Positions 25,171 to 59,733 of a stretch of 64,000 nucleotides of DNA are shown here, piece after piece. The DNA comes from Pristiophorus japonicus. Lineage: Eukaryota. Numbering within the stretch: the first letter of the stretch is position 1; every line of letters starts with the position of its first letter. The notes under the pieces are model-generated. The model was not told where the DNA came from, made no database searches, and was given only the letters and a program-made list of their open reading frames with translations. Location: the NCBI RefSeq assembly GCF_044704955.1, contig NC_091995.1:4898001-4962000 (forward strand), written 5' to 3'. The translations under genes and the position numbers were made by a program.

Positions 25171-28100
25171 AAGGGGCGGGGCTTCAGGCCGGCCCACGAC
25201 ATTCATGACCTCACAATGACTTGACCCCGCACGGATAGGGTCAGGAGCAGAGGTCAGGGATCAGTTGTTAGAAAATGTAATTTCTAAGTAATGCCTTGTA
25301 AAATCCCAATGAGACTGTAAATACAACCGATACAAATATAAAATGTGAGGAGACTTAAATAAAAAGTAAAAGCCGACAGCAACTCCATCCCAGCCCTTTC
25401 TCATCACTGCCCCGCTCCTTTGTATTAAAAAGCAGGTATAAGTTGTGCTCTGAAAATGAGCACATTCCTCAGGTATTCAGCACCACGCACCATTGGTGAT
25501 GAGAAACACACAAACTATCTCTTTTCAAAAAGAGGGGAGTTTGTAAATCTTCGGTTTAAAAGGCTACAGGTCATTGTAGTGCCGCTTTCAGCCAGGAGAT
25601 GGTGATGGCGAGCTGTACAAAGCTCTGTAAAGTTTTACAGTGCAATATCACCACCTGCTGGAGTAAATCAGTACTGCGGACATACCAAGAAATGTAGAAA
25701 CATTCGGCTAACTTAACAATTCAGGTCAGATCTTTCTGCAGAACTGAAAGATAATTGGATCAGAAAGAAGGACGTAAACTAAACAGGGGCCTAGAAAGCT
25801 GTGATTAAAGCCCCTGAGTACATAACCTGAGCTGACATTCCAGTGCAACACTGAAACAATCAGAAGGAAGGAGCTTGCATTCATATCAGTCCTTCAGGAT
25901 CTCAAGACATCCCAAAACACGTCACAGCGCAGTGAAGTGCAGTCACTGTTATTTAGAGGCACCATCTTTAGGTTGAGTTGTTGGAGACCCTGTTTGCCTG
26001 TTCAACTGGATGTTAAAGATCAGGAGACACTATTCAAATAAGGGCAGGCAGTTTACCCATGTCTCGGCCAACATTCCTTCTGCAATCAGTTGATGGATCT
26101 GGGGGAGTTGGCCAATGGAACTTGCCCTTATTTACAAAGCTGACATGGTAATTTGGTGGGTTTTTCAGTGAATGGTCTAAAAGTTTACAGCTGGATCTCG
26201 GTAATCTACAAGAAAGTTGGCAGTCAGGCTGGGTTTAAATAAAACGAATAAATAGGATAAGTAGTTGTTATCTGGATGGCCAGTACCAGATGGAATTACT
26301 GTTCATGTATTGAGGTCAATTCAGGACACCAGGGGAATGAGTTTCATGTCTGAGACCAGCAGTGTCAGGTTGCCAACACTCGATTTCAAGGAAATGCATT
26401 TTGCATTTAAATAGGAAACATCTTGTGTGCAGACACTGAGACTTGATTATGGAATCAAAATAAACCAAAGGCTAAAAAACTCAGTGTCAGTGTAAGTATG
26501 GGGTCCTGGATTATCTACCCATTTCCACTCTATTGGGGGTCCCCTCCATCATAGCATACGGTCGAGGTTCCATTATAGTTTATTTCGAGAGAGAGAGAGA
26601 TGATTGTGACGTCTCTCTGTGCTGATTAGATCAGTTGTTACTATTTGATTACAGTTTAGAGTTTAGAATTCCCCGTGTGTGGCCCTGATGGCTCAGTGGG
26701 TAAATGCTCAGCTTGGTGTGTGTGGTACTGAGCTGTGCAGAGCTGGGAGGGTCCCAGCCTGTACTGAATTAACTGGTCTCCCACAGAGCAGTGGTGGGGA
26801 TACTACGGTTGTTAGAGGGGAGCGAGTTCCACATTCTCATCACTCACTGGGTAAAGGAGTTTCTCCTGAATTCCCTATTGGATTTATTGGTGACTATCTT
26901 ATATTTATGGCCCCTAACCCTGATCTCCCCCGCAAGTGGAAATATCTCCTATACGTCCACCCTAACCTTTTATGATTTTAAAGACCTCTATCAGGTCACC
27001 CCTCCCTCAGCCTTCTCCTTTCTAGATAAAAGAGCCCAAGGCCGGGGACTATCCAGTGACTCCTCCTGCAGGCTGTGGCCATCAGGTGAGGACACAACTG
27101 AGCTCAGCCCTGCTGTTCCCGAGCCTCCAGTTAGTGCCTTCAGGAGGAGAGGCGGGGAAAGTGAGGTTGAGGGACTTCTACAAAGAAAGCCACAGTATAA
27201 ACAGGCTTTGTACAGGCTGTGCTGGTGCTCTGCTTACTGTGCCACAGTGTACGCTGCACTCCACACATGGGGATCTCCCAGTCTGAGCTGTGCTGCCCTC
27301 TAAGCTGGACTGAAATCTCCCTTACAGTCTCCAATGCATTTACAAAGTGTTGTTCTCCGGCAGTTTTAGAAACTACATTTCCTGATTCACCTAGGAGTCA
27401 GGAATGAAAATATTATCAGGAAACTGTGATTATACAGACCAGCTCTCTGGTATTTTTTATTTGCTTTACTCTCTTTCTTTAAACAGGTAAATGGTAAGGA
27501 TTTGAAACCCTGCTCCCACTATTGGATCACACTTTGTTTTCGCCCATTTACTGAATGTCGCGGTTCATTGTGTCTCCTTTTTACACATCAATTACTTTCA
27601 TCATAATTGATGTAAATATTGTAAAACAATTTTCTCAATTAAAGTAAACTCGAAATCTATTACCTGACTTCGATAATTGTAATCACCCTGTACATCAATA
27701 AAGAGCCTGTTTTAATCTCCCTCTGGCGTTGTCTGAAGGTTGGTTGAGGTAACACGAATTTTAAAAGAAAGCCATTAGATCAGAGATGTATCTCACACGC
27801 ATTTTAAAAGACAGATGAATTCATGTGAACTTCAGAGCAAGGCAAAAACTATTCGTCACCCTGTTTTATGAGGTTACTGACTTTCCCAGGTACACAGATG
27901 GTGCCCACATTGCTGGGTAAACCCGTACATTTTACCCCCTCGACACAAAGCGTTTACATTCGCTGAATGATCAGATTGTGTATGACAACATGCAAAGGCT
28001 CCATCCAAGACGCCATCGAATTTCAAGACCCAAATGTTTCCCAGATTTATCTCAAAATTATATACAATTGGTGAAAGTATGTTCCAGCTTACAATGAAGT

Positions 28101-28330
28101 AGATTTTAATCTTTCTCGCCGGGGTATTGTGTTGCTTGTTAAAACGCACAATGAAAAATGTGATACAGAGGATCGTAGGTTGATAACAGAAACCGCCTGA
28201 TTTCATCCCATTCATTTCAGTTGAAATGAATTTGTGTTCTGTTACCGGGGTGTGATCCGCTGAGCAGATTTTTCTTTCTGCTCCCCGCTCAGGTGACCCG
28301 GAATATCGGATGGTAAAGACGACAATCATT

Positions 28331-28821
28331 CCAATGTTGGATATGATGACTCAAGTGGAACATTTTGCATGATGGCATTGCATTAAAAATCTATGCAAAA
28401 GATTAATTTATTTCAAATCAGCATCGGTCTCTCCTCTGTCCCCCTCCTTTCGCCCCGCCCTTCCCCCACGCTCAGCACAATACCCATTTGTCTCAGTCTG
28501 ATCCAAGATGCAAAGTGCAACGTCATAGACAGTGAATTTAACACTATTTCATCGAGATGTGAGCAGCACTTCCAGGGATTCAAAAAATGATCTGTGACCG
28601 GGAACCGGGTCTGGATCCACCCACAGAAACATGAGTCCAGCAGTTTCAATCAGGAAGTACTGACACTGGTCATGTCTTCCAGACAGCTCCTTGACATTGA
28701 GGGCACTTTGTGTTTTAGGGTGAACGGCTGCAATCATTAACACGATTCAGTTTATGGATCTCTATCTCACACCGTGTGTCACCAGACCGTTTGTAGTCAG
28801 TAGCGAGTTGGGTCTGGAGCA
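28331..28821 (+). repeat. Inverted duplicate of 5323-5804, containing a decayed TRIM 5'-UTR/start-codon segment
   Basis: gatgtgagcagcacttccaggga...cagcagtttcaatcaggaag..ATGTCTTCCAGACAGC matches the reverse complement of 5340-5590 and the TRIM-C 5' region (49976-50115). Confidence 0.88.
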
Positions 28822-29282
28822 GTGTTGGGCAACATACGTCCCGCGGGCCATATTTTTTTTTTTTATTTCAAAATATACTTTATTCATAAAAAGAATCTGT
28901 ACAGTACATTCAATGGCATTTCATTACATTTCGCTGCGGTCAGCAATCCCATACAATACATCTGGGTGCTGACGGCAGTTCCGTTCGTTACATTTCTCGT
29001 TTTTCTGTTCAACTGCGATTCAGTACAATAAACAGGGTACATTGTGGTACATTTACACAAATTACATTTCATGTGTTACAATACAGAGCCTGGAATGGGT
29101 GACGGTACATTTACATTTTTTCTTTTCAAACTTGCATTTCATAACACACCTTGCATTGTACATGGCACTACATTGATGTTTACAGGTTTGGTGCTCTATG
29201 TACACAAAGTGTAAATTACAAATACAGCCCGAGGGAGTTTGGTGCTGATTTCTGCCCCCGGGTTTTCCGTGGCGGAAGGGTT

Positions 29283-32200
29283 TTAGACTGTGGCCCTTCC
29301 CCACCATGCCTTTGCGGCGACTACACCAATTTTCAGTGCGTCCCTCAGCACGTATTCCTGGATCTTGGATTGCGCCAGTCTGCAACATGCGGACGTGGTC
29401 ATCTCCTTGTTCTGGAAGACCAGCAAGTTTCGGCAAGACCAAAGAGCGTCTTTGACCGAGTTGATGGCCCTCCAGCAGCAGGTGATGTCTGTCTCGGTGT
29501 GTGTCCCTGGGAACAGCCCGTAGAGCACAGAGTCCTGTGTTACGGAGCTGCTTGGGATGAACCTCGACAGCAACCACTGCATCTCTTTCCAGACCTGCGT
29601 TGCAAAGGCGCAATCCTGAAGGAGATGGGTGACAGTCTCGTCCGCCCCGCAGCCGGCCCGGGGGCACCGTGCCGTGCTGCTGAGGCGTCGGCTGTGCATG
29701 AACACTCTGACGGGTAGGGCCCCCCTCACCGCCAACCAAGCTACATCTTGGTGCTTGTGTGTAAGCTTTGGCGATGAGACGTTCTGCCAAACAAGTTCGA
29801 CAGTCTGCTCAGGGAACCACCCGACAGGGTCCACCGTCTCCTTCTTTCGGAGGGCGTCCAGGACCTTACGTGCTGACCACTGTTTGATGGCCTTGTGGTC
29901 AAAGGGGTTTCTTTTGAAGAACTTTTCCACGAAGGACAGGTGGACAGGCATGGTCCAACTGGTGGGGGCGTTTCGCGGCAGCGTGGCCAGACCCATCCTT
30001 CTCAACAATGGGGACAGGTAGAACCTCAGCACGTAGTGACACTTGGTGTTTGCGTACTGGGGGGCTGTGCATAGCTTGATGCAGCCGCACACAAAGGTGG
30101 CCATCAGGATGAGGGCCACGTTCGGAACGTCCTTTCCTCCACTGTCCAGAGATTTGTACATCGTGTCTCTGCGGACACGGTCCATTTTGGATCTGCAGAC
30201 AAAGTGGAAGACGGCTCGGGTGACTGCCGCGGCGCAGGAGCGTGAGATGGGTCAGACCTGCGCCACGTACAACAACACCGAGAGCACCTCGCTCCTGATG
30301 ACCAGGTTCTTGCCTGTGATGGAAAGGGAGCGCTGCTCCCAAAATGACAGTTTCTGTCTGACCTTGGCAATGCGCTCGTCCCAGTTTTTGGCGCACGCCC
30401 CGTCCGCTCCGAACCATATTCCCAGCACCTTCAGGAAATCTGGCTTGACGGTGAAGGGAATGGAGGCTCGGTTGGTCCAGTGACCAAAGTGCATGGCCTC
30501 GCTTTTGGTGCGGTTGACCTTTGCTCCCGAGGCCAGTTCAAACTGGTCGCAGATTGCGAGCAATCTGCGGACCGACTGCGGGTCCGAGCAAAAGACGGCA
30601 ACGTCGTCCATGTACAGCGAGGTTTTGACCTGGGTGCCTCCGCTGCCTGGGATCGTCACCCCTCTGATGCCCGCATCCTTCCTGATGGACTCGGCAAAGG
30701 GCTCGATACAACACACAAACAAGACAGACGACAGAGGACAGCCTTGCCTGACTCCAGATCTGATTGGAAAGTTTTGAGTTTCCCACCCGTTGATTAGAAC
30801 TGCACTACTGATGTCTGTGTAGAGCAGTTTGACCCAATTTCGGATGCCCTCCCCGAACCCCATTTTGGAGAGCACGTCCATCAGGTACGTGTGCGATATC
30901 CTGTCAAAGGCTTTCTCCTGGTCTAAGCTGATTAAACAGGTGTTCACCCTCCTGTCCCGCACGTAGGCGATCATATCTCTGAGTAGCGCGAGGCTATCAG
31001 AGATCTTCCTGCCGGGGACAGCGCAGGTCTGGTCCGGGTGAATCACCAGCTCAAGAGCAGACTTGACCCTGTTGGCGATGACCTTTGACAGGATCTTGTA
31101 GTCCACATTGAGCAGCGAAATGGGCCGCCAGTTTTTGATTTCCTCCCTCTCCCCCTTCTGCTTGTAGATGAGGGTGATGATGCCTTTCCTCATCGATTCT
31201 GACATGCTGCCGGCCAGAAGCATACCTCCGTACACTTCCAGCAGGTCCGGGCCTATCCAGTCCCACAGAGCCGAGTACAACTCGACCGGTAAGCCATCGC
31301 TTCCGGGAGTTTTATTCATCTCGAAGGACCGGATGGCCTTTGTCAGCTCGTCCAGAGTTAGCGGGTGGTCCAGACTCTCTCGCTTGCCGTCGTTTAAGAC
31401 CTCCGAAATAGACGACAGGAAAGACTGGGAGGCCACGCGGTCTGTGGGCTTGACGTCGTACAGCCTGGCATAGAAGGATTCGCTGATCCTCTGCATGTCA
31501 GGCTGCGAAGACGTCACAGAACTGTCTTCTTCCTTTAGGCTGGTGATCACAGAGCTCCCCCTGTGTACCTTTTGGAAGAAGAAACGCGAACACGTCTCAT
31601 CCTGCTCGACGGAGCGGACTCTGGATCGGAAGATGATCTTGGAGGACTCCGAGGCAAAGAGCGAGGTTTGCTGGCCCTTCACCTCTTCGAGTTCCTCCGC
31701 GACATCGACCCCCATCGACTGCAGCAGGAGCAGGTTTTGCATATTTGTCTGGAGTCGGGACAATTCCCTCTGTCTCCCTCTCGCCTCCTGAACACCTTTG
31801 AGGATGAAGAACCTCTTGATGTTCGTCTTGATTGTTTCCCACCAGTGCATCGGGGAATCGCAGAGGGGTTTTACGGTTCTCCAACCGTTGTAATCCCTCT
31901 TGAGTTCCTCAATGTTTTCCGGAGTCAACAGTTTCACGTTCAGCTTCCATATCCCTCTGCCAACTTTCTGGTTGTCCTGCGTGTGACAGTCAGCCAGTAG
32001 GAGGCAGTGGTCAGAGAAGAACACCGGCGTGACGTCGGTGGATCTGACCTTGAGCGTGTGGGACACAAACAGGAAGTCTATTCTGGAACGGACGGACCCG
32101 TCTGGTCTCGACCAGGTGTATCTGCGCGGTGCTCCGTCTGCAGGGTTGCTGAAGACGTCGCACAGCTTGGCATCTTTTACCGCATCCATCAGGAGTTTGG

Positions 32201-32690
32201 ACGTGGTGTCCAGTTTGCTGTCGGCTCTGCTGGATCGTCCAGCCGCATCGATGATGCAGTTGAAGTCACCACCCAGAATGACAGGCCTGGACGTTGCCAG
32301 TAACAGTGGGAGCTGCTGGAAGAGGGCCAGCCTCTCGTTCTTCACAGCTGGAGCGTAAACATTAATTAACCTGAGAGGGGAGTTTTTGTACATTACATCT
32401 GCTACGAGGAGGCGGCCGCCCACCACCTCCTTAACTTCGGTGATGGTGAAGTGGCCTCCCCGCAGCAGAATGCCCAGGCCGGAAGCTCGGCTGTCGTTGC
32501 CCCCTGACCAAATGGATGGTCCATGGGTCCACCATCGTGACCACTGCCGGTAACTGCTGAAGTGCGGCAGACCGCACACCTGCAAGAAAAGCAGGTCCGC
32601 TTTGACCTTGGCGAGGTACCCCAAGGTGGAAACACATCGCGTAGTCGATTTCACGCTACGCACGTTAATACTAGCAATTTTTAAATCCAT
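29283..32690 (-). pseudogene. Tx1 ORF2 (endonuclease-reverse transcriptase) with one in-frame stop at 30252-30254
   Basis: ORFs 30252..32720 and 29283..30185 are in the same frame. Motifs: SINVRS, GGDFNC, SDHC, WRPISLLNVDYKIL, GVRQGCPLS, YMDD, CPRAGCGADETVTHLLQDC. Confidence 0.9.
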
Positions 32691-32710
32691 TTTTAAGCTA
32701 TGTTTTACAT

Positions 32711-34259
32711 TTACATACATTGCAGTTCAGATACATCGTTTTCAATTTCAGGTGAACCGTTTTCAATTGCCACATATTCTACAATGGCGATTTCCAGCAT
32801 GTGTAAGTTATTACTATTTACATCAAATTCAACATTTACTGCACCTGGGGTGGCGTGGTCATCGTCGTCCTCTGCTGTGGGGATGTTTTGACCAGGGGAC
32901 TGCTGCAGTTCTGCGATTAAGTCCTCAATGTTCTCTGCACTGTCCTCGCCTGGTGTTGGTGGTTCCCCCTTTTCCTCAGTCGCGGCGGTGTCGAGCTGGT
33001 GTGCGTCGACCGCTGCATCGCTCCCGGTGTTCCGGAGGTGGGGTGTGCTGGGCACTTCGCTGCTCCCGTTATCCCGGGGCTGGTCTGCGTTGGTTACTCC
33101 TTCGCTCCCGGTGTCCCGGAGCTCGTGTGCGCTGGGCCCTTTGTTGCTCTCAGGTTCCTGGGGCAGGGCTGTGTTGGTCGCTTCCCTGCTCCCGGTTTTC
33201 CGTGGCCGTGCGATGGCGCATTGCCTCTTCTTCAGGCGGTGGCACTTTTCCTCATCAGACAAGCTGCCGTCGCTGGTTTCTGCCGAGCTTGGTGGTCGCC
33301 TCTTGGCCTTGCGCCTTTTCCCTACTGTCTGCCATTCCGCTTCCTCGTCTGATGTCAGCTCGTCTCTGGGTTCGGTGCTCTGGGGGCGAGGTTCGCTGCT
33401 GGCTGCTGGTGGCTCGCAGCTCGCGCTAGCAGTGTTCTCTTCCTCGCCGTCTTGTCCCGAGTTCATGGTCGGGGGGAGGGTGTGGCTCTCCTCTGGCGCG
33501 TTGTGTCCGTCAGCTTCCTCCTCCTCTGGTGCAAAGTTCTTTGCTGCCTGCGCATAGCTGCGATTGCGTTTGGGGCAGTTTTTGTAAAGGTGCCCAGCCA
33601 GACCACAGAGGTTGCAGCACTTGGTCTCCTTGCAGTCCTTTGTCTGGTGGCCCTCGTTCTTGCAGTTTCGGCAGATGACCGTCTTGCAGCTTGCCGCCAC
33701 ATGGCCTGCCTTCCCGCAGGTGCGGCACACGTTGGGTTGGCCAGCGTACACCATGTAGCCCCGGCTTCCTCCGATGGAAAAGCTGGAGGGTGGGTGCAGG
33801 ATGGTTCCGCTGGCGTCCATCTTCAAGGTCCACCTGGATCTGGCGCTTGCTGGTCCATATTCCGTGCCCGTCTTTCAAGTCACTGCTGCTTCCTGCCCCA
33901 TCGACAAACCTGTTGAGGAAAGTCAGCACATCGATGACGGGGATGTGGGGGTCGTACATTTGCACTGTGATAGTGCGTCTTCGCTGCGACGGGAGGGTGA
34001 ACAGCGGCTCCCAAGTTAGCACTGAGCGCACCGGTTCACTCGCCTCCTTCAAACCCTTCAGGAACTTCAGGCAGAGGGTGACGGTTCTGAAGGTCACATC
34101 GAAGTAACCTCTCTTCGGGAGGTCCTGCAAGGCGAAGACGTCGGCGACTTTCATGCCACATGTTCCCAGCAGGATTTTCTTCACGAAAAGTTCCCGGTTG
34201 ATCATTGTCTGTCCTTTCACTTTCTTTACCGTCACTCGGATGGTGTTTCAGACCGCCAT
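32711..34259 (-). pseudogene. Tx1 ORF1 (gag-like zinc-knuckle protein), disrupted
   Basis: CRTCGKAGHVAASC, CRNCKNEGHQTKDC, CNLCGLAGHLYKNC. Frameshift near 33825 between ORFs 33510..34235 and 32711..33826; early TGA after the ATG at 34259. Confidence 0.85.
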
Positions 34260-34511
34260 CCGGGTTGCAGATTCCTCCTTTCGCTGTGAGTTTTGGCCGA
34301 AGCCTTCATTCTCTCGTCGCCCCAGTCCGGGGCACGGGCGGACCTCCTGGCCCGCCCCTTGACAGGCCCAAAGGCCCGTCGAATCGTCAGTCGACATGCA
34401 GATTTTGTCTCCTCTCTCCAATTGGCGCCTGGCTCAAGCCAAAGGCCAGAGCCAGCAAAACTGGAAAAACGAGTTTCTGCAGTCAGTCGATTTGCATATG
34501 AATGCCCAATC

Positions 34512-34553
34512 AACAGGTACTCCACTTGATCTTAGCCAAAAGGCCGAGAAGCG
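34512..34553 (-). ncRNA. RNU2: U2 snRNA 5' fragment (nt 3-44) forming the 5' end of the Tx1 element; not a U2 gene
   Basis: CGCTTCTCGGCCTTTTGGCTAAGATCAAGTGgAGTAcCTGTT versus vertebrate U2 CGCTTCTCGGCCTTTTGGCTAAGATCAAGTGTAGTATCTGTT (40/42). Confidence 0.92.
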
Positions 34554-35699
34554 GGCCATATCCCTCCCGCGAAGTCATTCGATCCGGCCCGCTGGACAAG
34601 TAGTACGCGAGCAGGAGCTCGAGCTGCACATTCGTCTATCCACTTTCACTTCTGATCGGTCAGAGACAGAACCGAACTGGAGCCGAGGAAAAGCCATAGT
34701 AATACTTATTTCAAATTAATAATTCGCAAAAGAGATTCTCCCTGAGCCAATCTGAAAAGGACCGTTCCGCGAGTCTGGGCCCCAATGGCGGATGGACGTA
34801 CCCAGTATGCACGGCGCAGTGGAATATGCCCTATCCATTTTAGAGTAGGGTCATGGCAGCTCATCGCCACAACTCATTTACCGCGCTGCACCTTTCCTCT
34901 CGCTGTATCCAGAGTACGACGGCAGGGGAGTTCTCATCTGGCACCAATTGGGACGGCATTAGTCATCTGTGCAGCGGGACATGAGGATGCCTGAGGTGGG
35001 GAATTGATGCTGACACAGGCTCTAAAGAGAAAACAGTTCTATTTCACAGCACTGAGTTACAGAGACCAGAAGATACCACAACATTTTCAACTTTTATCTT
35101 TGATCCATTTCTAAACAGTATCGAACACCCGTTTGTGTGTAAAATAGAACCTGACTACAATCTGAATTTATATTTATGCAACGTTTATGTTTGTGCAATA
35201 TTGGCTCCAATTGTTTTCACTCACTCCCTTTAAATTTACTGCCCGCCCGGCCGCGATTGGTGGAAGGTTGGTGGACGGCCCCCAACAACTCACCAAAACT
35301 TGTTAAGTGGCCCTCCAGCCCAAATAATGTCCCAGCCCTGTACCAGAGTGAGCTGTGAGCTGCAGGAACCCGGGGACCTTGCTGCCTGTAATATTGCTCC
35401 ACGGGCGGAAGGTGGCGCTACACCGCCGTGTCTCAGGTGGATTGCCGCTGTCCGGGTCACTCCAGCTGCTTTACCACCATGGCCATTGGCCACACTTCCC
35501 CAGGGGCCGCCAGCTCCACTCACTCTCGGAGGGAGACAGATGGAGCTTCCTTGAATGAACAATTGCTGAGTCTGTTCAGCGACCCGGCTGTGTGAGATTC
35601 AGAGTCTGAAATAGAAAAGCCCGCGTCCAGTGACAATGATCTTGTCAATGGTGAGTTCTGAGCCCAACCTTATCAGATCTGTCTCATTTTAATCGGTGT

Positions 35700-35892
35700 T
35701 TAACTGCAGAGCAGAGGGGCGCTGCAGGGTGAGTGAAGGCGGCTGAAGAGCGGGAGGGTGGAGCTCGCGGAACGCCTCAGAGCCCCGGGAAAGACCGGCT
35801 TTAGAAAGGTGCAGAGCCTAAAACCATCGGTTGGGGTTCCGGGGGACACTCGGGGACATTTGCCGAGAGTCAGTCCGCCTCTGAGGGTAAGT
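35700..35892 (+). promoter_or_regulatory. GC/CpG-rich candidate promoter and non-coding first exon, possibly of TRIM-C
   Basis: CpG-rich block ending in donor gagg|gtaagt at 35887; the TRIM-C first coding exon has an upstream acceptor ttcatgcag at ~49984. Confidence 0.35.
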
Positions 35893-36714
35893 CCGCGGGC
35901 CGGATGAACCTGTTCCAGGGTCTGATCCCACACCCCTGCTATAAACAGATGTTTCCCCTCACCATCCAGATGCTGTCACTTTTTCCCATTTGCTCCTCAC
36001 AGCAGCGCACATCTGGGGCATTAACAGAAACCTCAGTGGCAGTAATTTACTGACTGCATTCAATCTAGTCTCCTCCTACAATACTAAGCTCTCTTTAAAT
36101 AGTAGATATTATCACACAGATCAGAGGTTTACAGATTGAAATGACTGGTATATTTAGCTGAAATTAAACAGTGGTGTGAGACACTCAAATTTGGCAAAGT
36201 CTAACGGAGTGATTTATGTAAAAATAGTTGCCACGCTAAAGTTACCAGCGGCTCAGTTGACCCTGGTGAGATTATCTGGAGATGCAGTATATAAACCAGT
36301 GGAATTTAGCCTCAAATCCCTGGGCTGGGACCTCCCACCCTCCCTCTGGCAATTAATGGGCAGGGCTGGGGGGAGTGAGTGGGAATTTGGGTCTGGGCGC
36401 AGTCCATCTATTTCACCGGCCATTGGATTTCCTACCACACACGGACAGGGCTATTGAAATGAAATTGAAAGGTCAGAGTTACTCCAGTTTTAAATACAAA
36501 AACAAAATACTGCTGATGCTGGAAATCTGAAATATCAGAAAATACTGGAAACACTCAACAGGTCAGGCGGCATCTATGGAGGCACAGAGTTAATGTTTTG
36601 GGTCAATAACCTTTCAAATATTGGGACTCGGTCTCTACTGAAAAGTGACTGCCGTGCAGCATAAACCTTATTTGCTTTCCTGGATATGTCCTGGCATCGG
36701 CGATGTTATTTGCG

Positions 36715-38990
36715 GGGAGGGGCAGTGAACGTGAAAGGGAGGGGGCAATGATCGGGAGAGGGAGGAGGCAGTGATCGGCAGAGGGAGGGGGCAGTGATAG
36801 GGAGAGGGAGGGGGCAGTGATTGGGAGAGGGAGGGGGCAGTAATGAGGAGAGTGAGGGGGCAGCGATGGGGAGAGGGAGGGGGCAGTGATCGGGAGAGGG
36901 CAGTGATCGGGAGAGGGAGAGGCAGTGATCGGGAGAGGGAGGGCGCAGTGATCTGGAGAGGGGTGGCAGTGATGGGGAGAGGGAGGAGGCAGTGATGGGG
37001 AGAAGGAGGGGGCAGCGATCGGGAGAGGGAGGAGCAGTGATGGGGAGAGTGAGGGCGCAGTGATGGGGAGAGGGAGGGGCAGTGATGGGGAGAGGGAGGG
37101 GCAGTGATCGGGAGAGGGAGGGGGCAGTGATGGGGAAAGGGAGGGAGCAGTGATGGGGAGAGGGAGGGGGCAGTAATGAGGAGAGTGAGGGGGCAGCGAT
37201 GGGGAGAGGGAGGGGCAGTGATCGGGAGAGGGCAATGATCGGGAGAGGGAGGGCGCAGTGATCTGGAGAGGGGTGGCAGTGATGGGGAGAGGGAGGAGGC
37301 AGTGATGGGGAGAGGGAGGGGCAGTGATCGGGAGAGGCAGTGATCGGGAGAGGGAGGGCGCAGTGATCTGGAGAGGGGTGGCAGTGATGGGGAGAGGGAG
37401 GAGGCAGTGATGGGGAGAAGGAGGGGGCAGCGATCGGGAGAGGGAGGAGCAGTGATGGGGAGAGTGAGGGCGCAGTGATGGGGAGAGGGAGGGGCAGTGA
37501 TGGGGAGAGGGAGGGGCAGTGATCGGGAGAGGGAGGGGGCAGTGATGGGGAAAGGGAGGGAGCAGTGATGGGGAGAGGGAGGGGGCAGTAATGAGGAGAG
37601 TGAGGGGGCAGCGATGGGGAGAGGGAGGGGCAGTGATCGGGAGAGGGCAATGATCGGGAGAGGGAGGGCGCAGTGATCTGGAGAGGGGTGGCAGTGATGG
37701 GGAGAGGGAGGAGGCAGTGATGGGGAGAGGGAGGGGCAGTGATCGGGAGAGGCAGTGATCGGGAGAGGGAGGGCGCAGTGATCTGGAGAGGGGTGGCAGT
37801 GATGGGGAGAGGGAGGAGGCAGTGATGGGGAGAGGGAGGGGCAGTGATCGGGAGAGGGCAGTGATGGGGAGAGGGAGGAGGCAGTGATGGGGAGAAGGAG
37901 GGGGCAGCGATCGGGAGAGGGAGGAGCAGTGATGGGGAGAGGGAGGGGCAGTGATCGGGAGAGGGCAGTGATCGGGAGAGGGAGGGGCAGTGATCTGGAG
38001 AGGGAGGGGGCAGTGATAGGGGGAGGGAGGGGGCAGTGATGGGGAGAGGGAGGGGGCAGTGATCTGAAGAGGCAGGGGGCTGTGATTGGGAGAGGGATAG
38101 CAGTGATCGGGATAGGGAGGGGCAGTGATGGAAAGAGGGAGGGGACAGTGATGGGGAGAGCGAGAGGGCAGTGATGGAGAGAGGGAGGGGCCAGTGATGG
38201 GGGAGAGGGAGGGGCAGTGATCTGGAGAGGGAGGGGCAGTGATGGGGAAAGGGAGGGAGCAGTGATGGGGAGAGGGAGGGGCAGTGATTGGGAGATGGAG
38301 GGGCAGCGATTGGGAGATGGAGGAGGCAGCGATTGGGAGAGGGAGGGGGGCAGTGATGGGGAGAGGGAGGGGGCAGTAATGGGGAGAGGGAGGGGGGCAG
38401 TAATGGGGAGAGGGAGGGGGCAGTGATGGGGAGAGGGAGGGGGCAGTAATGAGGAGAGGGAGGGGTACTGATGGGGAGACGGATGGGGCAGTAATGGGGA
38501 GAGGGAGGGGGCAGTGATGGGGAGAGGGAGGGGCAGAGATGGGGAGACGGAGGGGGCAGTAATGAGGAGAGGGAGGGGGCAGTGATGGGGAGACAGAGGG
38601 GGCAGTGATCGGGAGAGGGAGGGACAGTGATGGGGAGAGGGAGGGGCAGTGATGGGGAGAGGGAGGAGGCAGTGATGGGGAGATGGAGGGGGCAGTGATC
38701 GGGAGAGGGAGGGACAGTGATGGGGAGAGGGAGGGGCAGTGATGGGGAGAGGGAGGGGGCAGTGAAGGGGGAGACGGAGGGGGCAGTGATGGGGAGATGG
38801 AGGGGGAAGTGATGGGGAGAGGGAGGGGGCAGTGATGGGGAGAGGGAGGGGGCAGTGATGGGGAGAGGGAGGGGCAGTGATGGTGAGATGGAGGGGCAGT
38901 GATGGTGAGACGGAGGGGCAGTGATGGGGAGACGGAGGGGCAGTGATGGGGAGAGAGAGGAGGCAGCGATTGGGAGAGGGAGGGACAATC
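36715..38990 (+). repeat. G-rich minisatellite (~22-23-bp unit gggagagggagggggcagtgat) with higher-order repeats
   Basis: Direct inspection; the marker taatgaggagagtgag recurs at 36841, 37174 and 37589. Confidence 0.97.
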
Positions 38991-39119: not shown

Positions 39120-42100
39120 CTCCCTCTGAGGTAACCATCATCACAGAAGCCAGTCTTCAGCTAATTTGATTCACTCCACATGATATTAAGAAACGGCTGA
39201 ATGCACTGGATACAGAAAAGGCTATGGGCTCCCACAACATCCTTTCTGCCGTGCTGAGGACTTGTGCTCCAGAACCTCTAGCTGAGCTGCATCAGTACAG
39301 CTACAACACTGGCATCTATCCGACAATGTGGAAAATTGGCCTGGTATGTCCTGTCCAAAAAAGCAGGACAAATCCAATCCGGCCAATTACCGGCCCATCA
39401 GTCTACTCTCAATTATCAGCAAAGTGATGTAAGGTGTCATCAACAGTGCTATCCAGTGACACTTGCTCACCAATAACTTGCTCACTGATGCCCAGTTTGG
39501 GTTCCGCCAGGACCACTCGACTCCAGACTTCATTACAGCCTTGGTCCAAACATGGACAAAAGAGCTGAATTCCAGAGGTAAGGTGAGAGTGACTGCCGTT
39601 GACATCAAGGCAGCATTTGACCAAGTGTGGCATCAAGGAGCCCTAGTAAAACTGGAGTCAATGGGAATCAGGGGGAAAACTTTCCACTGGCTGGAGTCAT
39701 ACCTAGCACAAAGGAAGATGGTAGTGGTGGTTGCAGGTCAATCATCACAGCCCCTGGACTTTGCTGCAGATGTTCCTCGGGGCAGTGTGCTAGGCTCAAC
39801 CATCTTCAGTTGCTTCATCAATGATCATCCTTCCATCATAAGGTCAGAAGTGGAGATGTTCGCTGATGATTGCATAGTGGCATTCACAACTGCTCAGATA
39901 AGAACATAACAAATAGGAGCAGGAGTAGGCCATTTGACACCTCGAGCCTGCTCCGCCATTTAATAAGATCATGGCTGATCTGATTTTGGGCTCAGCTCCA
40001 CTTCCCTGGCCACTCCCCATATCCCTTCACTCCCTCAGATAATGAAGTATTCCATTCCCGTATGCAGCAAGACCTGAACGACATTCAGGCTTGGGCTGAT
40101 GAGTAAAGCAAATTACAGGAGGACATCAATAAACTTGCAGAATTTGCTTTGAAATTGGCAAATGAAATTCAACCCAGATAAATGTAAGGTATTACATTTT
40201 GGTAGGAAGAATAGAAAGGTCACTTATTACTTGGAGGGTGCGAGTCTGGGTGAGGAAAGTGGAACAAAAGAATCTCGGAGTACAAATACACAAATTGCTA
40301 AAAGTTGTGACACAGGTTAGCAGGGCCATAAGAAAGCAAACCAAGCACTCGAGTTTTTTTCTAGAGGTATAGAATTGAAAAGAAGGGAAGTTATGCTGAA
40401 CCTGTATCGAACCTTGGTTAGACCACACGTAGAGTACTGTGTACAGGTCTGGTCGCCATATTATACAAAGGATAACAAGGCACTGGAGGGTGCAGAGAAG
40501 ATTTACAAGGATTATACCAGAAATGCGAGGATATACATATCAGGAAAGGATGAACAGGCTGGGTCTCTTTTCTCTTGAAGAAAGAAGGCTAATGGGCTTT
40601 CTAATAGAGGTCTTTAAAATTATGAAAGGTTTTGTTGGAGTGGATACAGGGAGAATATTTCCACTTTGGGGAAGAGCATAACTAGAGACCAGCAATATAA
40701 TATAGTCACCAAGAAATCCAATGGGGAATTCAGAAGAAAATTATTTCCCCAAAGAGTGGTGAGAATGTGGAACTCACTTCCATTGGGAATAATTGAAGTG
40801 AATACTATAAGGGGAGGTAGGACAAGCATATGAGGGAGAAGGGAATAGAGGGTTATGCTGATAGCCTTAGATGACCAAAGACGGGAGGAGGCTCGGGCGG
40901 AGCATAAACGCCCACATGGACTGGTTGGGTCGAAACGCCTGTTTCTATACCGTATATCATATGTAACCCTGTATAACATCCGCACCATACAAGTGTCAGA
41001 CAATGACTGCCTCCAACTAGCGAGCATCTAACCACTGCCCCTTGACATTCAATGGCATTACCATCGGCAAATCACCCACCATCAATAGCCTGGGAGTCAC
41101 CATTGACCAAAAACTTAACTGGACCAGCCACATAAATACTGTGGCTACAAGAGCAGGTTAGAGGCTGTATCTCGTGACGAGTGTCTCACCTTCTGACTCT
41201 CCAAAGTCTTTCCACCATCTACAAGGCACAAGTCAGGAGTGTGATAGAATACTCTCCACTTTCCTGGATGTGTGCAGATCCAACAACACTCAAGAAGCTC
41301 GACACCATCCAGGACAAAGCAGCCCGCTTGATCGGCACCCCACCCACCACCTTCAACATTCAGTCCCTCCACCGGCGCACCATGGCTGCAGTGTGTACCA
41401 TCTACAACAGGATGGGAAATTATTTGGGCTGGAGGGCCACTTAGTAAGTTGTGGTGAGCTGTTGAGGGCCGCCCCCCCCCCCCCCCCTCAATGTTCAACC
41501 AATCACGCGATCCCCGGCTCCTGCCGCTGGAAGAGATATTGCGCATGTGCGGCTGCATCGTGGCCGGGCGTGCAGCAAATTTAAAGGGACCGTGTGCAAA
41601 ATTAGAGGGAACATGGCATAACATGAACATTGCATGAACACAAACACGTATTGAATACTGCTTGTTAATGAATTAAAGATAAAAGTTGAAAGTGTTGTGG
41701 TATCTCCTGGTCTCTGTAACTCAGTGCTGTGAAATAGAACTGTTCCCTCTTTAGAGCCTGTGTCAGCATCAATTCCCCACCTCAGGCATCCTCATGTCCC
41801 GCTGCAAAGATGACTAATGCGGTCCCAATTGCTGCCAGATGAGAACTCCTCTGCCGTCGTACTCTGGATACCGGGAGAGGAAAGATGCAGCCCCGTCACT
41901 TTCTTCGATAAAAGATTTGCGGAGATGAGCAGCCATGACTCCACTCTAAATGGAATAGGGCATATTCCAGTAGGCAGTGCATTCTGGGTACGGACGTCCG
42001 CCATTTGGGCCGGAATTATGGAACGGATCTTTTTAAAATCGGACCAGGGAGAATCGCTTTTGCGAATTATTCATTTGAATCATGTATTACTATGTTTTTG

Positions 42101-42690
42101 CTTGGCTGCAGTTCCGTATGTATCTGACCCATGAGAAATGAATGTGACGAAATAAAAGCAGAACATGCTGAAAATCTCAGCATATGTGGAGAGAGAAACA
42201 TAGTTAACGTTTTAGGTCGATGGCCCTTCGTCAGACGAATGTGCAGCTCGAGCTCTGGCTCACGTTCTATTTCTGTCCCATCAAATAGGCCGGAGAGAAT
42301 GACTTGGCGGGCCGGATATGGCCAGCCCGCGGGCCATATTTTGCCCACCACTGATCGACACGATGCACTGCAGTAACTCGCCAAGGCTAGTTTGGCAGCA
42401 CCCCCCAAACACACGACCTCTACCACCAAGAAGGGCAAGGGCAGCAGGCGCTCCACGTTCTCCTCCAAGTCACACACCATCCTGACTTGGAAATATATCG
42501 GAGTTCCTTCATCGTCGCTGGGTCAAAATCCTGGAACTCCCTTCCCAACAGCACTGTGGGATTACCTGCACCACACGGACTGCAGCGCTTCAAAAAGGCG
42601 GCTCACCACCTCCTTCTCAAGGACAACTGGGGATGGGCAATAAATGCTGGCATTGCCAGCCACGCCCACATCCCATGAACGAATAAAAAA
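39120..42690 (+). mobile_element. Degenerate CR1-group/jockey-like LINE, interrupted by CR1 pieces (~39900-40035, 40105-40975) and the hAT copy
   Basis: QFGFRQDHSTPD...DIKAAFDQVWHQG...FADD; IYKAQVRSVIEYS; 3' tail ggatgggcaataaatgctggc...cccatgaacgaataaaaaa. Confidence 0.8.
41408..42352 (-). mobile_element. Second copy of the non-autonomous hAT-like element
   Basis: caggatgggaa...ttgcccaccactg termini; degenerate 8-bp TSD atctacaa/atcgacac; inverted homology to 34551-35340. Confidence 0.7.
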
Positions 42691-43593: not shown

Positions 43594-46500
43594 TCAGTAC
43601 CCCATTCCTGCTTTCTCGCCATACCCCTTGATCCCCCTAGCAGTAAGGACCTCATCTAACTCCTTTTTGAATATATTTAGTGAATTGGCCTCAACAACTT
43701 TCTGTGGTAGAGAATTCCACAGGTTCACCACTCTCTGGGTGAAGAAGTTCCTCCGCATCTCGGTCCTAAATGGCTTACCCCTTATCCTTAGACTGTGACC
43801 CCTGGTTCTGGACTTCCCCAACATTGGGAACATTCTTCCTGCATCTAACCTGTCTAACCCCGTCAGAATTTTATATGTTTCTATGAGGTCCCCTCTCATT
43901 CTTCTGAACTCCAGTGAATACAAGCCCAGTTGATCCAGTCTTTCTTGATAGGTCAGTCCCGCCATCCCGGGAATCAGTCTGGTGAACCTTCGCTGCACTC
44001 CCTCAATAGCAAGAATGTCCTTCCTCAGGTTAGGAGACCAAAACTGTACACAATACTCCAGGTGTGGCCTCACCAATGCCCTGTACAACTGTAGCAACAC
44101 CTCCCTGCCCCTGTACTCAAATCCCCTTGCTATGAAGGCCAACATGCCATTTGCTTTCTTAACCGCCTGCTGCACCTGCATGCCAACCTTCAATGACTGA
44201 TGTACCATGACACCCAGGTCTCTTTGCACCTCCCCTTTTCCTAATCTGTCACCATTCAGATAATAGTCTGTCTCTCTGTTTTTACCACCAAAGTGGATAA
44301 CCTCACATTTATCCACATTATACTTCATCTGCCATGCATTTGCCCACTCACCTAACCTATCCAAGTCGCTCTGCAGCCTCACAGCATCCTCCTCGCAGCT
44401 CACACTGCCACCCAACTTAGTGTCATCCGCAAATTTGGAGATACTACATTTAATTCCCTCATCTAAATCATTAATGTACAGTGTAAACAGCTGGGGCCCC
44501 AGCACAGAACCTTGCGGTACCCCACTAGTCACTGCCTGCCATTCTGAAAAGTACCCATTTACTCCTACTCTTTGCTTCCTGTCTGACAACCAGTTCTCAA
44601 TCCATGTCAGTACACTACCCCCAATCCCATGTGCTCTAACTTTGCACATCAATCTCTTGTGTGGGACCTTGTCGAACGCCTTCTGAAAGTCCAAATATAC
44701 CACATCAACTGGTTCTCCCTTATCCACTCTACTGGAAACATCCTCAAAAAATTCCAGAAGATTTGTCAAGCATGATTTCCCTTTCACAAATCCATGCTGA
44801 CTTGGACCTATCATGTCACCTCTTTCCAAATGCACTGCTATGACATCCTTAATAATTGATTCCATCATTTTACCCACTACCGATGTCAGGCTGACCGGTC
44901 TATAATTCCCTGTTTTCTCTCTCCCTCCTTTTTTAAAAAGTGGGGTTACATTGGCTACCCTCCACTCCATAGGAACTGATCCAGAGTCAATGGAATGTTG
45001 GAAAATGACTGTCAACGCATCCACTATTCCCAAGGCCACCTCCTTAAGTACTCTGGGATGCAGTCCATCAGGCCCTGGGGATTTATCGGCCTTCAATCCC
45101 ATCAATTTCCCCAACACAATTTCCCGGCTAATAAGGATTTCCCTCAGTTCCTCCTCCTTACTAGACCCCCCGACCCCTTTTATAACCGGAAGGTTGTTCG
45201 TGTCCTCCTTCGTGAATACCGAACCAAAGTACTTGTTCAATTGGTCCGCCATTTCTTTGTTCCCCGTTATGACTTCCCCTGATTCTGACTGCAGGGGACC
45301 TACATTTGTCTTTACTAACCTTTTTCTCTTTACATATCTATAGAAACTTTTGCAATCCGTCTTAATGTTCCCTGCAAGCTTCTTCTCATACTCCATTTTC
45401 CCTGCCCTAATCAAACCCTTTGTCCTCCTCTGCTGAGTTCTAAATTTCTCCCAGTCCCCAGGTTCGCTGCTATTTCTGGCCAATTTGTATGCCACTTCCT
45501 TGGCTTTAATACTATCCCTGATTTCCCTTGATAGCCACGGTTGAGCCACCTTCCCTTTTTTATTTCTATGCCAGACAGGAATGTACAATTGTTGTAGTTC
45601 ATCCATGCGGTCTCTAAATGTCTGCCATTGCCCATCCACAGTCAACCCCTTAAGTATCATTCGCCAATCCATCTCAGCCAATTCACGCCTCATACCTTCA
45701 AAGTTAGCCTTCTTTAAGTTCTGGACCATGGTCTCTGAATTAACTGTTTCATTCTCCATCCTAATGCAGAATTCCACCATATTATGGTCACTCTTCCCCA
45801 AGGGGCCTCGCACAACGAGATTGCTAATTAATCCTTTCTCATTACATAACACCCAGTCTAAGATGGCCTCCCCCCTAGTTGGTTCCTCGACATATTGGTC
45901 TAAAAAACCATCCCTTATGCACTCCAGAAAATCCTCCTCCACCGTATTGCTTCCAGTTTGGTTAGCCCAATCTATGTGCATATTAAAGTCACCCATTATA
46001 ACTGCTGCACCTTTATTGCACGCACCCCTAATTTCCTGTTTGATGCCCTCCCCAACATCACTACTACTGTTTGGAGGTCTGTACACAACTCCCACTAACG
46101 TTTTTTGCCCTTTGGTGTTCTGCAGCTCTACCCATATAGATTCCACATCATCCAAGCTAATGTCCTTCCTAACTATTGCCTTAATCTCCTCCTTAACCAG
46201 CAATGCTACCCCACCTCCTTTTCCTTTTATTCTATCCTTCCTGAATGTTGAATACCCCTGGATGTTGAGTTCCCAGCCCTGCTCATCCTGGAGCCACGTC
46301 TCCGTAATCCCAATCACATCATATTTGTTAACATCTATTTGCACAGTTAATTCATCCACCTTATTGCGGATACTCCTTGCATTAAGACACAAAGCCTTTA
46401 GGCTTGTTTTTTTAACACCCTCTGTCCTTTTAGAATTTTGCTGTACAATGGCCCTTTTTGTTCTTTGCCTTGGGTTTCTCTGCCCTCCACTTTTCCTCAT
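43594..46500 (-). CDS. CR1 ORF2p, APE endonuclease + reverse transcriptase, 968 aa, uninterrupted
   Basis: LNARSI, ITETWL, MGDFN, SDH, NYRPVSLTS, YLDFQKAFD, GVPQGSVLGP, FADD. Confidence 0.95.
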   Translation of the reverse strand: MRKSGGQRNPRQRTKRAIVQQNSKRTEGVKKTSLKALCLNARSIRNKVDELTVQIDVNKYDVIGITETWLQDEQGWELNIQGYSTFRKDRIKGKGGGVALLVKEEIKAIVRKDISLDDVESIWVELQNTKGQKTLVGVVYRPPNSSSDVGEGIKQEIRGACNKGAAVIMGDFNMHIDWANQTGSNTVEEDFLECIRDGFLDQYVEEPTRGEAILDWVLCNEKGLISNLVVRGPLGKSDHNMVEFCIRMENETVNSETMVQNLKKANFEGMRRELAEMDWRMILKGLTVDGQWQTFRDRMDELQQLYIPVWHRNKKGKVAQPWLSREIRDSIKAKEVAYKLARNSSEPGDWEKFRTQQRRTKGLIRAGKMEYEKKLAGNIKTDCKSFYRYVKRKRLVKTNVGPLQSESGEVITGNKEMADQLNKYFGSVFTKEDTNNLPVIKGVGGSSKEEELREILISREIVLGKLMGLKADKSPGPDGLHPRVLKEVALGIVDALTVIFQHSIDSGSVPMEWRVANVTPLFKKGGREKTGNYRPVSLTSVVGKMMESIIKDVIAVHLERGDMIGPSQHGFVKGKSCLTNLLEFFEDVSSRVDKGEPVDVVYLDFQKAFDKVPHKRLMCKVRAHGIGGSVLTWIENWLSDRKQRVGVNGYFSEWQAVTSGVPQGSVLGPQLFTLYINDLDEGIKCSISKFADDTKLGGSVSCEEDAVRLQSDLDRLGEWANAWQMKYNVDKCEVIHFGGKNRETDYYLNGDRLGKGEVQRDLGVMVHQSLKVGMQVQQAVKKANGMLAFIARGFEYRGREVLLQLYRALVRPHLEYCVQFWSPNLRKDILAIEGVQRRFTRLIPGMAGLTYQERLDQLGLYSLEFRRMRGDLIETYKILTGLDRLDAGRMFPMLGKSRTRGHSLRIRGKPFRTEMRRNFFTQRVVNLWNSLPQKVVEANSLNIFKKELDEVLTARGIKGYGEKAGMGY

Positions 46501-46562
46501 CTCCTTTCTGTCTTTTGTTTTTGCCTCTATCTCCCTGCATTGGTTCCCATCCCCCTGCCATA

Positions 46563-47510
46563 TTAGTTTAACTCCTCCCCAACAGCACTAGCAAACACTC
46601 CCCCGAGGACATTGGTTCCGATTCTGCCCAGGTGCAGACCGTCCGGATTGTACTGGTCCCACCTCCCCCAGAACCGGTTCCAATGCCCCAGGAATTTGAA
46701 TCCCTCCCTGCTGCACCATTGCTCAAGCCACGTATTCATCTGAGCTATCCTGCGATTCCTACTCTGACTAGCACGTGGCACTGGTAGCAATCCCGAGATT
46801 ACTACTTTTGAGGTCCTACTTTTTAATTTAGCTCCTAGCTCCTTAAATTCATTTCGTAGGAACTCATCCCTTTTTTTACCTATGTCATTGGTACCAACGT
46901 GCACCACGACAACTGGCTGTTCTCCCTCCCTTTTTAGAATGTCCTCCACCCGCTCCGAGACATCCTTGACCCTTGCACCAGGGAGGCAACATACCATCCT
47001 GGAGTCTCGGTTGCGGCCGCAGAAACGCCTATCTATTCCCCTTACAATTGAATCCCCTATCACTATCGCTCTTCCACTCTTTTTCCTGCCCTCCTGTGCA
47101 ACAGAGCCAGCCACGGTGCCATGAACTTGGCTGCTGCTGCCCTCCCCTGATGAGTCATCCCCCTCAACAGTACTCAAAGCGGTGTATCTGTTTTGCAGGG
47201 GGATGACCACAGGGGACCCCTGCACTACCTTCCTTGCACTACTCTTCCTGCTGGTCTTCCATTCCCTCGCTGGCTGTGGACCCTTCTCCTGCAGTAAGAC
47301 CAACTCGCTACACGTGATACTCACGTCATTCTCAGCATCGTGGATGCTCCAGAGTGAATCCACCTTCAGCTCCAACTCCGCAACGCGGACCGTCAGTAGC
47401 CGGAGGTGGACACACTTCCCGCACATGTAGTCGTCAGGGACACTGGTGTTGTCCCCGTGTTCCCACATGGTACAGGAGGAGCATATCACGTGACCGAGCT
47501 GTCCTGCCAT
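46563..47510 (-). CDS. CR1 ORF1p with N-terminal Cys cluster/leucine zipper and SGNH esterase domain, 315 aa
   Basis: CSSCTMW..CGKC; IGDSIVR, HVGTND, DGLHL (GDSL/SGNH blocks). Confidence 0.92.
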   Translation of the reverse strand: MAGQLGHVICSSCTMWEHGDNTSVPDDYMCGKCVHLRLLTVRVAELELKVDSLWSIHDAENDVSITCSELVLLQEKGPQPAREWKTSRKSSARKVVQGSPVVIPLQNRYTALSTVEGDDSSGEGSSSQVHGTVAGSVAQEGRKKSGRAIVIGDSIVRGIDRRFCGRNRDSRMVCCLPGARVKDVSERVEDILKREGEQPVVVVHVGTNDIGKKRDEFLRNEFKELGAKLKSRTSKVVISGLLPVPRASQSRNRRIAQMNTWLEQWCSREGFKFLGHWNRFWGRWDQYNPDGLHLGRIGTNVLGGVFASAVGEELN

Positions 47511-47696
47511 GACTTAACCCTTAGATACACTTAAATTGCCGACAACAATGTTAAAAGTTACTGACTAATAAAGAAAAAGAAAAACTACTCACCAATCAGC
47601 AGCCAATCACTTACCACGTTGGCTGTGACGTCACCTTTTGATTTCTTTCTACTTCTTTTTTGACTTCTCTCAGCTGGAGCTGCACCGGTACCCAGA

Positions 47697-54152: not shown

Positions 54153-54212
<60 letters not shown>

Positions 54213-54929
54213 CTATTCCCTTTTCCTGCAGTCTCTCTCTTTCCTTCTCTCACCCAGTCTCAAATATTTTGGCTGTACCTGTAAATCAAATATAAATCAT
54301 ATGTAAAAATGGGGCACTAAAACCGACAATTTAAACAAATTAACTTTTAACAATAATGGTTCAAATTAAAATTGGATGCACATGGAAGGCCGCGAGCGTA
54401 CCGATGGACACCACGTGCTTCATCACCCGGGACACACTGGCTCGGATGTAACCGTGGAAGAGAGGCACGCAGTCGGGCTGAATGACCCTCCTCGACCTCC
54501 TGCTGACTGGACCGGTTGATGGCCACCTTGGCCATGCTCCCCCAGTCTCAACCTTTCCCTCTCTCCAGTCTCTCTTTCTCCAGTCTCCCTTTCTCCTTCT
54601 CTCACACACTCTTCTCCCCTTAGTCTATCTCTCCCCTCTGATTATTTCTCTCCCACAGACTTTCTCTCTCCAGTCTTTCTCTCCACACTATCTCTTTCTA
54701 CCCCAGTCTCTCTCTTCCAAGCTTCTCTCCCCCTCTTTCTCCCTCTCCCCAGTCTCGCTCACCCCAGTCTCTCCCTCTCCACACCAATCTCTTTTTCTCT
54801 CCCGTCTCTCTCTCCAGACTCTCTCTCCAGTCTCGCTCTCTCCAGTCACTCTCCCCCTCAGCCTATCTCTCCCTCTCTGATTCTTTCTCTCCCCCAGTCT
54901 CTCCTTCCACCTCTCTCACTCTCTCTTCC

Positions 54930-54964
<35 letters not shown>

Positions 54965-58521: not shown

Positions 58522-58557
<36 letters not shown>

Positions 58558-59702: not shown

Positions 59703-59733
<31 letters not shown>

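Follow-up and report, generated by a model that had tools for sequence, protein, structure and literature searches.

The Tx1 element in the window

The sequence studied here is a stretch of 64,000 nucleotides (nt) from Pristiophorus japonicus (contig NC_091995.1, positions 4,898,001 to 4,962,000), below called the window; positions given without a contig or locus name refer to it. On its minus strand, with the reading order running from 34561 down to 28843, lies a 5.7-kb long interspersed nuclear element (LINE) of the Tx1 type, and the 5' end of this element is a piece of U2 small nuclear RNA (snRNA). Below, the element is compared with its relatives in U2 genes and elsewhere in the genome, and explanations for its U2 head are weighed.

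The element starts with an 11-bp target site duplication (TSD; 34551..34561), followed by the U2-derived head (34512..34553) and by a 5' untranslated region (UTR) of its own (34398..34511). Two candidate promoter motifs lie in the latter, a CCAAT-type box (ATTGG, element nt 46) and a perfect octamer (element nt 59-66). The first open reading frame (ORF1, 32711..34397) is disrupted and encodes two ZCCHC3-type RNA-binding domains with CCHC knuckles. ORF2 (29283..32720, the start being approximate) encodes an apurinic/apyrimidinic (AP) endonuclease, a reverse transcriptase (RT) and a zf-RVT domain. The 3' UTR (28865..29282), with AATAAA at 28884-28879, leads into a poly(A) tail (28854..28864) and the second TSD (28843..28853).

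The initial annotation had described the head as U2 nt 3-44 with two mismatches, and this is borne out by direct reading, by cmscan and by the genome's own U2 gene. With Rfam models, cmscan reports U2 at 34381-34555 on the minus strand (47.2 bits, E 2.8e-6), the confident alignment being limited to the first ~44 model positions. Compared with the genome's own gene, window positions 34553-34512 correspond to U2 nt 3-44 and are identical at 40 of 42 positions; the differences are T34G (34522), which lies in the branch-point pairing motif (nt 33-38), and T39C (34517). The sequence also confirms that no U2 follows the poly(A). The 11-bp duplication (gcgggccatat) is present at 34551-34561 and 28843-28853, but it does not lie wholly outside the U2 piece as had been stated: its final 3 nt (34553-34551) are also U2 nt 3-5, so that the joint between duplication and head is one of microhomology.

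The copy is full length, as had been claimed, yet dead. ORF1 has a stop at codon 50 and a +1 frameshift near 33832, and ORF2 has one premature stop at 30252-30254; it is an ordinary dead insertion. Its alignment with an intact relative, over 5690 bases, shows 125 differences and a further 7 indels.

Intact copies at nt 37/38 of tandem U2 genes

We searched the genome (5.9 Gb, 4318 contigs) for U2 and found a tandem array with a unit of ~770 bp on contig C19 and on unplaced contigs, as well as a second U2 class on C9. The array stretches that were read through are C4309, C1832, C1868, C1003 (40,000 of 40,788 bases) and 150 kb of C19. Together these five stretches hold 266 promoter-led units, that is, units that open with the upstream flank of the array: 234 continue into U2, 15 into the LINE and 17 into a short interspersed nuclear element (SINE). 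At the edge of the C19 array, where it borders on an assembly gap, insertions are present in 16 of 17 units.

The 3' junctions of array LINEs are precise. Among 18 that were printed, 13 lead into U2 from nt 38/39 onward, four into the head of another copy at nt 38, and one into the SINE at the equal offset. Keno is a Tx1-clade LINE with an AP endonuclease that is specific for U2 snRNA genes (PMC4494074, PMC4640811, PMC6136364), and its insertion site is given as 37 nt into U2, with a 3' flank from nt 39 onward (PMC6136364, PMC4640811). The LINE family occupies this site, 37 nt into U2 genes with a 3' flank from nt 38/39 onward, and the window copy does not.

At the 5' side, the joint between array flank and head is seamless in 13 of the 15 LINE-led units, 12 of them with the variant head and one with a wild-type head. 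The other two consist of U2 1-53, 34 nt and then a complete head, and have U2 nt 38-53 as their TSD; they have a common junction and may represent one event. As the complete head lies inside the TSD in these insertions, it must have arrived with the RNA.

All 20 array copies that were aligned are at most 0.61% from one reference copy. Both frames are open in 17 of these 20, compared with 5 of 29 full-length copies outside the array. In a natural array copy Pfam recognises PF03372, PF00078, PF13966 and PF00098, i.e. an AP endonuclease and RT in ORF2 and a CCHC-type ORF1. One of the explanations in the initial annotation was a lineage that has lost its U2 specificity; it finds no support, as the youngest intact copies are located exactly at U2 nt 37/38.

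In one arrangement (L061, C19:69625741-69625616) U2 nt 38-131 and a second poly(A) come behind an array LINE, and then another head begins at nt 38; this could have arisen by deletion or by 3' transduction from an array master. The second class of U2 genes (L059, L187, L188; C9:111.0-113.8 Mb) is about 96% identical to the array U2 and has an upstream region of its own, and each of these genes is followed by a truncated LINE tail and then U2 nt 38 onward. In this C9 cluster, older and more diverged LINE copies (82-94%) do adjoin U2 nt 38.

Most copies are located outside U2 genes

The exact variant head matches the genome 56 times, 14 times in the array and 42 times outside; with two mismatches allowed there are 122 matches (100 listed). 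Whether the two substitutions are shared between copies had been proposed as a check, and the answer is that the same variant is found in all 56 exact matches. These, together with the full head inside the U2 nt 38-53 TSD of the two array insertions, bear out the earlier claim that the head travels with the element. All 42 off-array heads were read: they start at U2 nt 1-24, with 23 of them at nt 1-5, and in none is the upstream flank of the array found. The 3' end is in reach for 32 of them; some of the remainder are inversions.

A word taken from behind the head has 58 matches. In 49 the head is directly upstream, and the other nine lie behind a later insertion or a tandem joint at nt 38 or 53; for one of these nine, on C14, the displaced head is presumed. 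The initial annotation had named two outcomes that would speak against it, full-length copies without a head and near-confinement of the copies to U2 genes; neither was found.

To count 3' ends two words from the 3' UTR were needed, as the first misses all array copies through one CpG site. Jointly they give 78 + 45 = 123 matches, 19 in the array and 104 outside. Off-target insertion is the rule and not a rarity, although the off-array share of ~85% is approximate because exact words undercount old copies and because arrays may be collapsed in the assembly. From 47 of the 104 outside matches and the 32 ends of the head set we obtained 79 ends with 67 distinct flanks. None of the 67 leads directly into U2 nt 39 onward; 21 have the SINE within ~40 nt, one lies in a LINE head, and 45 are other DNA. 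Strict Keno-like specificity, with copies essentially only in U2 genes, is thus not a property of this family. By eye the off-array flanks are diverse, with the U2-headed SINE as a recurring neighbour (21/67). TSDs of 10-32 bp were found at 20 of the 32 ends, a count inflated by poly(A) ambiguity, and the sites with a TSD show no off-target motif beyond an A-rich cut.

Using Rfam, no other snRNA gene was found in 19 off-array loci, nor within 10 kb of four young copies. In terms of map distance, 4 of 113 off-array LINE loci have a listed U1 or U5 gene at 10 kb or less, where 0.025 would be expected if loci were uniformly placed, and six are within 50 kb (0.09 expected); the null used here is a naive one, and the lists of U1 (42) and U5 (48) genes are incomplete. 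The loci near U1/U5 genes are at C9:167.4 and 168.4 Mb, C2321:271 kb and C1093:339 kb. In two duplicated C9 loci (L148:1538-1927 and L149) the poly(A) of a truncated copy runs into the start of a frame that we take to be a putative histone H2B. Finally, three loci (L106, L291, L238) point to a second insertion hot spot near nt 53 of the LINE's own 5' end.

One graded lineage of copies

Trees were built from 49 and from 62 full-length copies, with CpG columns removed; the sets exclude ten copies that lack a 3' end and three that are rearranged (L084, L088, L120). Both trees are ladders: the tip is the array cluster, and the youngest off-array copies are nested in it. On a backbone score of 143 steps toward the array state the copies grade from 0 to 1.0, and the window copy has a score of 0.71. 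There are 467 side variants, absent from both ends of the ladder; 409 of them are singletons, and at most 5 are common to any pair of copies.

Two ideas about the head variant were rejected. A stepwise history, from wild type to T39C to T34G, is contradicted by an old copy that already has G34 and C39, and by heads with T34 that interleave up to 0.70 on the backbone. Neither do T34G and T39C block self-insertion, as four array copies and one off-array insertion enter the variant head at nt 38.

A partner SINE in the same array

The short element in the array is a SINE of 345 bp, in which U2 1-28, a U1-like piece, U2 153-186 and a second piece of the U2 head are followed by a tail and poly(A). 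The U1-like piece resembles U1 nt 4-57 (81%, E 1e-10 in an older variant). The SINE occurs in 17 array units (C19:69.62-69.725 Mb, C4309, C1832 and C1868; for example L071:3960-4304, minus strand), in all of them at U2 37/38, and the copies of the C4309, C1832 and C1868 arrays are 100% identical to the C19 reference. Genome-wide, one 28-mer of the SINE has 4,855 exact matches. In a sample of 47 near-full off-array copies, biased toward neighbours of the LINE, the array flank is absent throughout, 37 copies begin at nt 1-5, and five are 98-99% identical to the array copy. Of the thousands of copies of this SINE, the youngest reside in the same U2 array as the LINE.

The SINE and the LINE have the U2 37/38 site in common and are often head-to-tail neighbours. 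The SINE lacks the octamer, and no match between the LINE and the tail of the SINE turned up in the array scans. At least one further family of U2-derived SINEs, with a diverged U2 body, a second head piece and another tail, was seen at L189, L196, L199 and L200, and is itself struck at nt 37/38.

In size (<500 bp), in its U1/U2-derived head, in poly(A) and in being multicopy, the 345-bp element is SINEU-like. SINEUs are SINEs headed by U1 or U2 and were reported only from crocodilians (PMC4494074). The resemblance includes the U1/U2 pieces, the poly(A) and tandem copies that sandwich a TSD. The differences are that here near-identical copies stand behind the U2 flank in the array, and that SINEU is reported there from crocodilians only (PMC4494074).

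The promoter and the origin of the head

The reading that we prefer, with a probability of roughly 70%, treats the window element as a dead, off-target member of a Keno-type family of Tx1 LINEs. The intact copies of this family, nearly identical to one another, occupy nt 37/38 of tandem U2 genes, where the U2 promoter probably drives their transcription. On the observed side there are on-target copies behind the array's U2 flank, a common head, an off-target majority, and one graded lineage that ends in the array. A Keno-like element read from a U2 promoter and integrated off-target had been one of the options in the initial annotation; it fits best, but off-target insertion (104/123 3' ends) is not the rare event that had been supposed.

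The proposed cycle is as follows. Array copies would be read by the U2 promoter from +1, giving an RNA that opens with U2 nt 1-44. With masters transcribed in this way, the head would ride in the RNA, and scattered copies would therefore carry the first ~44 bases of U2; that heads end at nt 1 and carry no flank would have the same cause. The ORF2 endonuclease would nick U2 DNA at 37/38, with reverse transcription priming on the poly(A). In a U2 gene the U2 head of the cDNA may then anneal to the homologous upstream target, and the new copy, seamless with the promoter, could become a new master. In U2, nt 34 is upstream and nt 39 downstream of the cut: the 33-44 nt of homology that the head has on re-insertion into U2 would thus give the seamless joins, the single wild-type head and the hybrid heads with T34 and C39. 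In most cases the endonuclease would cut non-U2 DNA, the head joining by 1-5 nt of microhomology, as in the window copy, and such a copy, having no U2 promoter, would decay. The 345-bp U2/U1-derived SINE would share both the enzyme and the promoter slot with the LINE.

Several observations weigh against this reading. In an older subfamily, about 10-12% from the array copy, U2 nt 1 is preceded by a common extension of ~63 nt, which begins sharply at a shared point (for example L223:1471-1533, minus strand; 19 other loci within L221-L240), and at least one past master must therefore have begun upstream of U2 +1. A word from this extension has 20 exact matches; the head follows in 19 of them, and an intact U2 gene in none. 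For this comparison 11 of the 21 listed wild-type-head copies and all nine listed hybrid-head copies were fetched, and part of the extension is present in all 11 of the former and in one hybrid. Further, a profile of the proximal sequence element (PSE) made from four sequences did not score the array flank (P 0.32) and failed on the other U2 class as well (P 0.54), so the array flank as a working promoter stays predicted. No RNA record was listed for the 5' kilobase of the element, a result that is uninformative on expression. The octamer (nt 59-66) and ATTGG (nt 46) are found in old and young copies and could be an internal promoter. A crude ORF2 dN/dS of 0.14 for variants in at least three copies against 0.56 for private off-array variants (12 stops) favours the preferred reading, but it is uncorrected for the bias toward transitions, and unsampled masters contribute to the private values below 1. 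The lineage data can also be read otherwise: an internally promoted L1 would give a ladder of one lineage as well, and the uniformity of the array could be concerted evolution, given its identical duplicated pairs.

Some of these points are what an internal promoter would predict. In that explanation the octamer and CCAAT-type box behind the head start transcription at or upstream of it, in an L1-like manner, the 5' end formed by the head is fixed, and the array simply holds on-target insertions whose uniformity is due to concerted evolution. It draws on the presence of both motifs in old and young copies, on the same octamer at about -205 of U1 genes, on the older subfamily that begins ~63 nt upstream of U2 +1, and on the five of 29 off-array copies with both frames open. 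We nevertheless think it unlikely: outside the array no side lineage of any size is seen, the youngest off-array copies fall among those of the array, and the SINE, which has no octamer, shows the same start at U2 +1 and the same residence in the array. Alternatively, the masters may have moved between U2 arrays and other transcribed sites, using any upstream promoter (5' transduction), with the U2 array as the current host only. The 63-nt extension, which aligns to the upstream region of neither U2 class, would agree with this, and comparable 5' extensions have been described for SINEU-2 (Kojima 2015, PMC4494074). However, the last five letters of the extension are those of the array flank and its PSE score is marginal (P 0.055), for which reasons it may be the flank of a lost U2 locus; moreover, for young copies moving masters are compatible with transcription from the array. 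We regard this history as improbable, more so than an internal promoter. Finally, the head of the window copy could be a one-off template switch from LINE RNA to U2 snRNA, chimeras of a kind known in human and crocodilian genomes (PMC4494074). This is refuted by what the copies share: the junction at nt 44 and the two non-U2 letters are common to 56 exact copies, and 49 of the 58 matches from behind the head have the head directly upstream, the other nine being displaced by a later insertion or tandem joint. Its chance is practically nil.

Beyond the reading of array masters read from the U2 promoter, a wider proposal is conceivable, though we hold it with more doubt than belief. Here the U2 array would act as a promoter bank for a retroelement ecosystem: the only active masters of both LINE and SINE would be in U2 genes, the head would serve as a docking sequence that links new copies back to the promoter, and off-target insertion would be steered to other snRNA and histone gene clusters. 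If true, this would explain how SINEU is transcribed and would represent the step between Keno and the Tx1-Mar/SINEU state.

Relation to known elements

By RT similarity to proteins annotated as Tx1, the family can be placed in the Tx1 clade. The RT region is 50% identical (E 3e-92) to proteins titled 'transposon TX1 uncharacterized 149 kDa protein', and the clade call depends on such source names. In a tree of 27 RTs the element groups with RTs of amphibians and with unnamed ones (94/90, not starred), and a teleost clade that includes Takifugu BAD04856 (39% over ORF2) stands separately; none of the accessions is a confirmed Keno. Like Keno, the LINE has the U2 site, an AP endonuclease with RT, two ORFs and poly(A); it differs in that about 85% of its 3' ends (104/123) are off-array and in its U2 1-44 head with two private substitutions.

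R2 elements in 28S rDNA need the promoter of their target gene, and their 5' joining is aided by co-transcribed target sequence. The proposed model is similar in its promoter dependence and in its 5' joining; unlike the LINE here, R2 has a restriction-like endonuclease (RLE), is co-transcribed by RNA polymerase I and is strictly specific. Utopia elements are RLE-type LINEs that target U2, and some of the reptile and ant families are described as having weak specificity and off-target copies (Kojima & Jurka 2015, PMC4640811). Utopia uses the same U2 site as the LINE here, but differs in its endonuclease class and single ORF, against an AP endonuclease and two ORFs here.

The initial annotation had raised the possibility of an snRNA-headed autonomous LINE. 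An autonomous LINE with such a head is indeed what we found, but the type is not new: Kojima 2015 (PMC4494074) describes Tx1 families that group with Keno and have a U1 or a U2 head, among them Tx1-11_Crp (U2), Tx1-2_Crp and Tx1-4_AMi (U1). At 85-87% to consensus, the crocodilian Tx1-Mar families are old, and they insert preferentially into a Mariner transposon (Mariner-N4_AMi) or long terminal repeat (LTR) elements (PMC4494074). Like the LINE here they are autonomous, snRNA-headed Tx1 LINEs inserted outside U2 genes. In contrast, the present family is young, keeps exact U2 targeting and, by eye, shows no single alternative host, and the available parts of the source describe no Tx1-Mar copies in U2 genes (PMC4494074). 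The family, then, works like Keno but without being strictly specific, and its head is like that of Tx1-Mar.

What is new here is that the presumed masters of both LINE and SINE reside in the array. A literature search that covered few subscription journals turned up no account of such masters for an snRNA-headed LINE or SINE; Repbase or Kojima & Fujiwara 2004 may hold the family or off-target Keno copies. In Kojima 2015, the transcription of SINEU is called an open question, with upstream promoters suggested, and that of snRNA-headed retroelements is left open, since an snRNA promoter is upstream of the gene and does not go along with the copy (PMC4494074). In the young system described here, near-identical copies of a LINE and a SINEU-like element stand directly behind the U2 upstream flank, which makes the transcription question testable. 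A U2-specific Keno that inserts mostly elsewhere is also a likely intermediate toward the crocodilian Tx1-Mar/SINEU state, and its intact ORF2 provides a natural example of a relaxed AP endonuclease.

Surroundings of the window copy

The element is inserted in a non-U2 interspersed repeat, of which the terminal 23 bp are at 28820..28842 and the remainder at 34562..35337 (plus strand; 78-87% identical to an empty paralogue). This repeat ends at 28820, and the empty paralogue, without the U2 piece, is in the window at 41410-42345 or, more narrowly, 41638-42345. That the host is an interspersed repeat stands; its earlier label 'hAT-like' is a putative one drawn from the terminal repeat, and Pfam gave no transposase match in 11 frames flanking the window copy. 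The region 27097-37080 is one of a segmental-duplication pair, its partner (L080, C19:4.726-4.736 Mb) being ~199 kb away and 99.06% identical over at least 10 kb.

A copy at 21406-21524 had been annotated as a second member of the same family without U2 at its 3' flank. The flank is as described, but the copy is only 74.6% identical over 126 bp and is therefore a diverged relative.

The window also contains a second, unrelated LINE (43594-47513, minus strand) with a GDSL-esterase ORF1 and an endonuclease/RT ORF2, which we take to be CR1/L2-like. A diverged 5S rRNA-like copy (58 bits) is at 16419-16534 on the minus strand, and a long palindrome, 96% self-complementary, at 7622-8102. Two long low-complexity tandem repeat tracts occupy 36715-38987 and 53427-63230.

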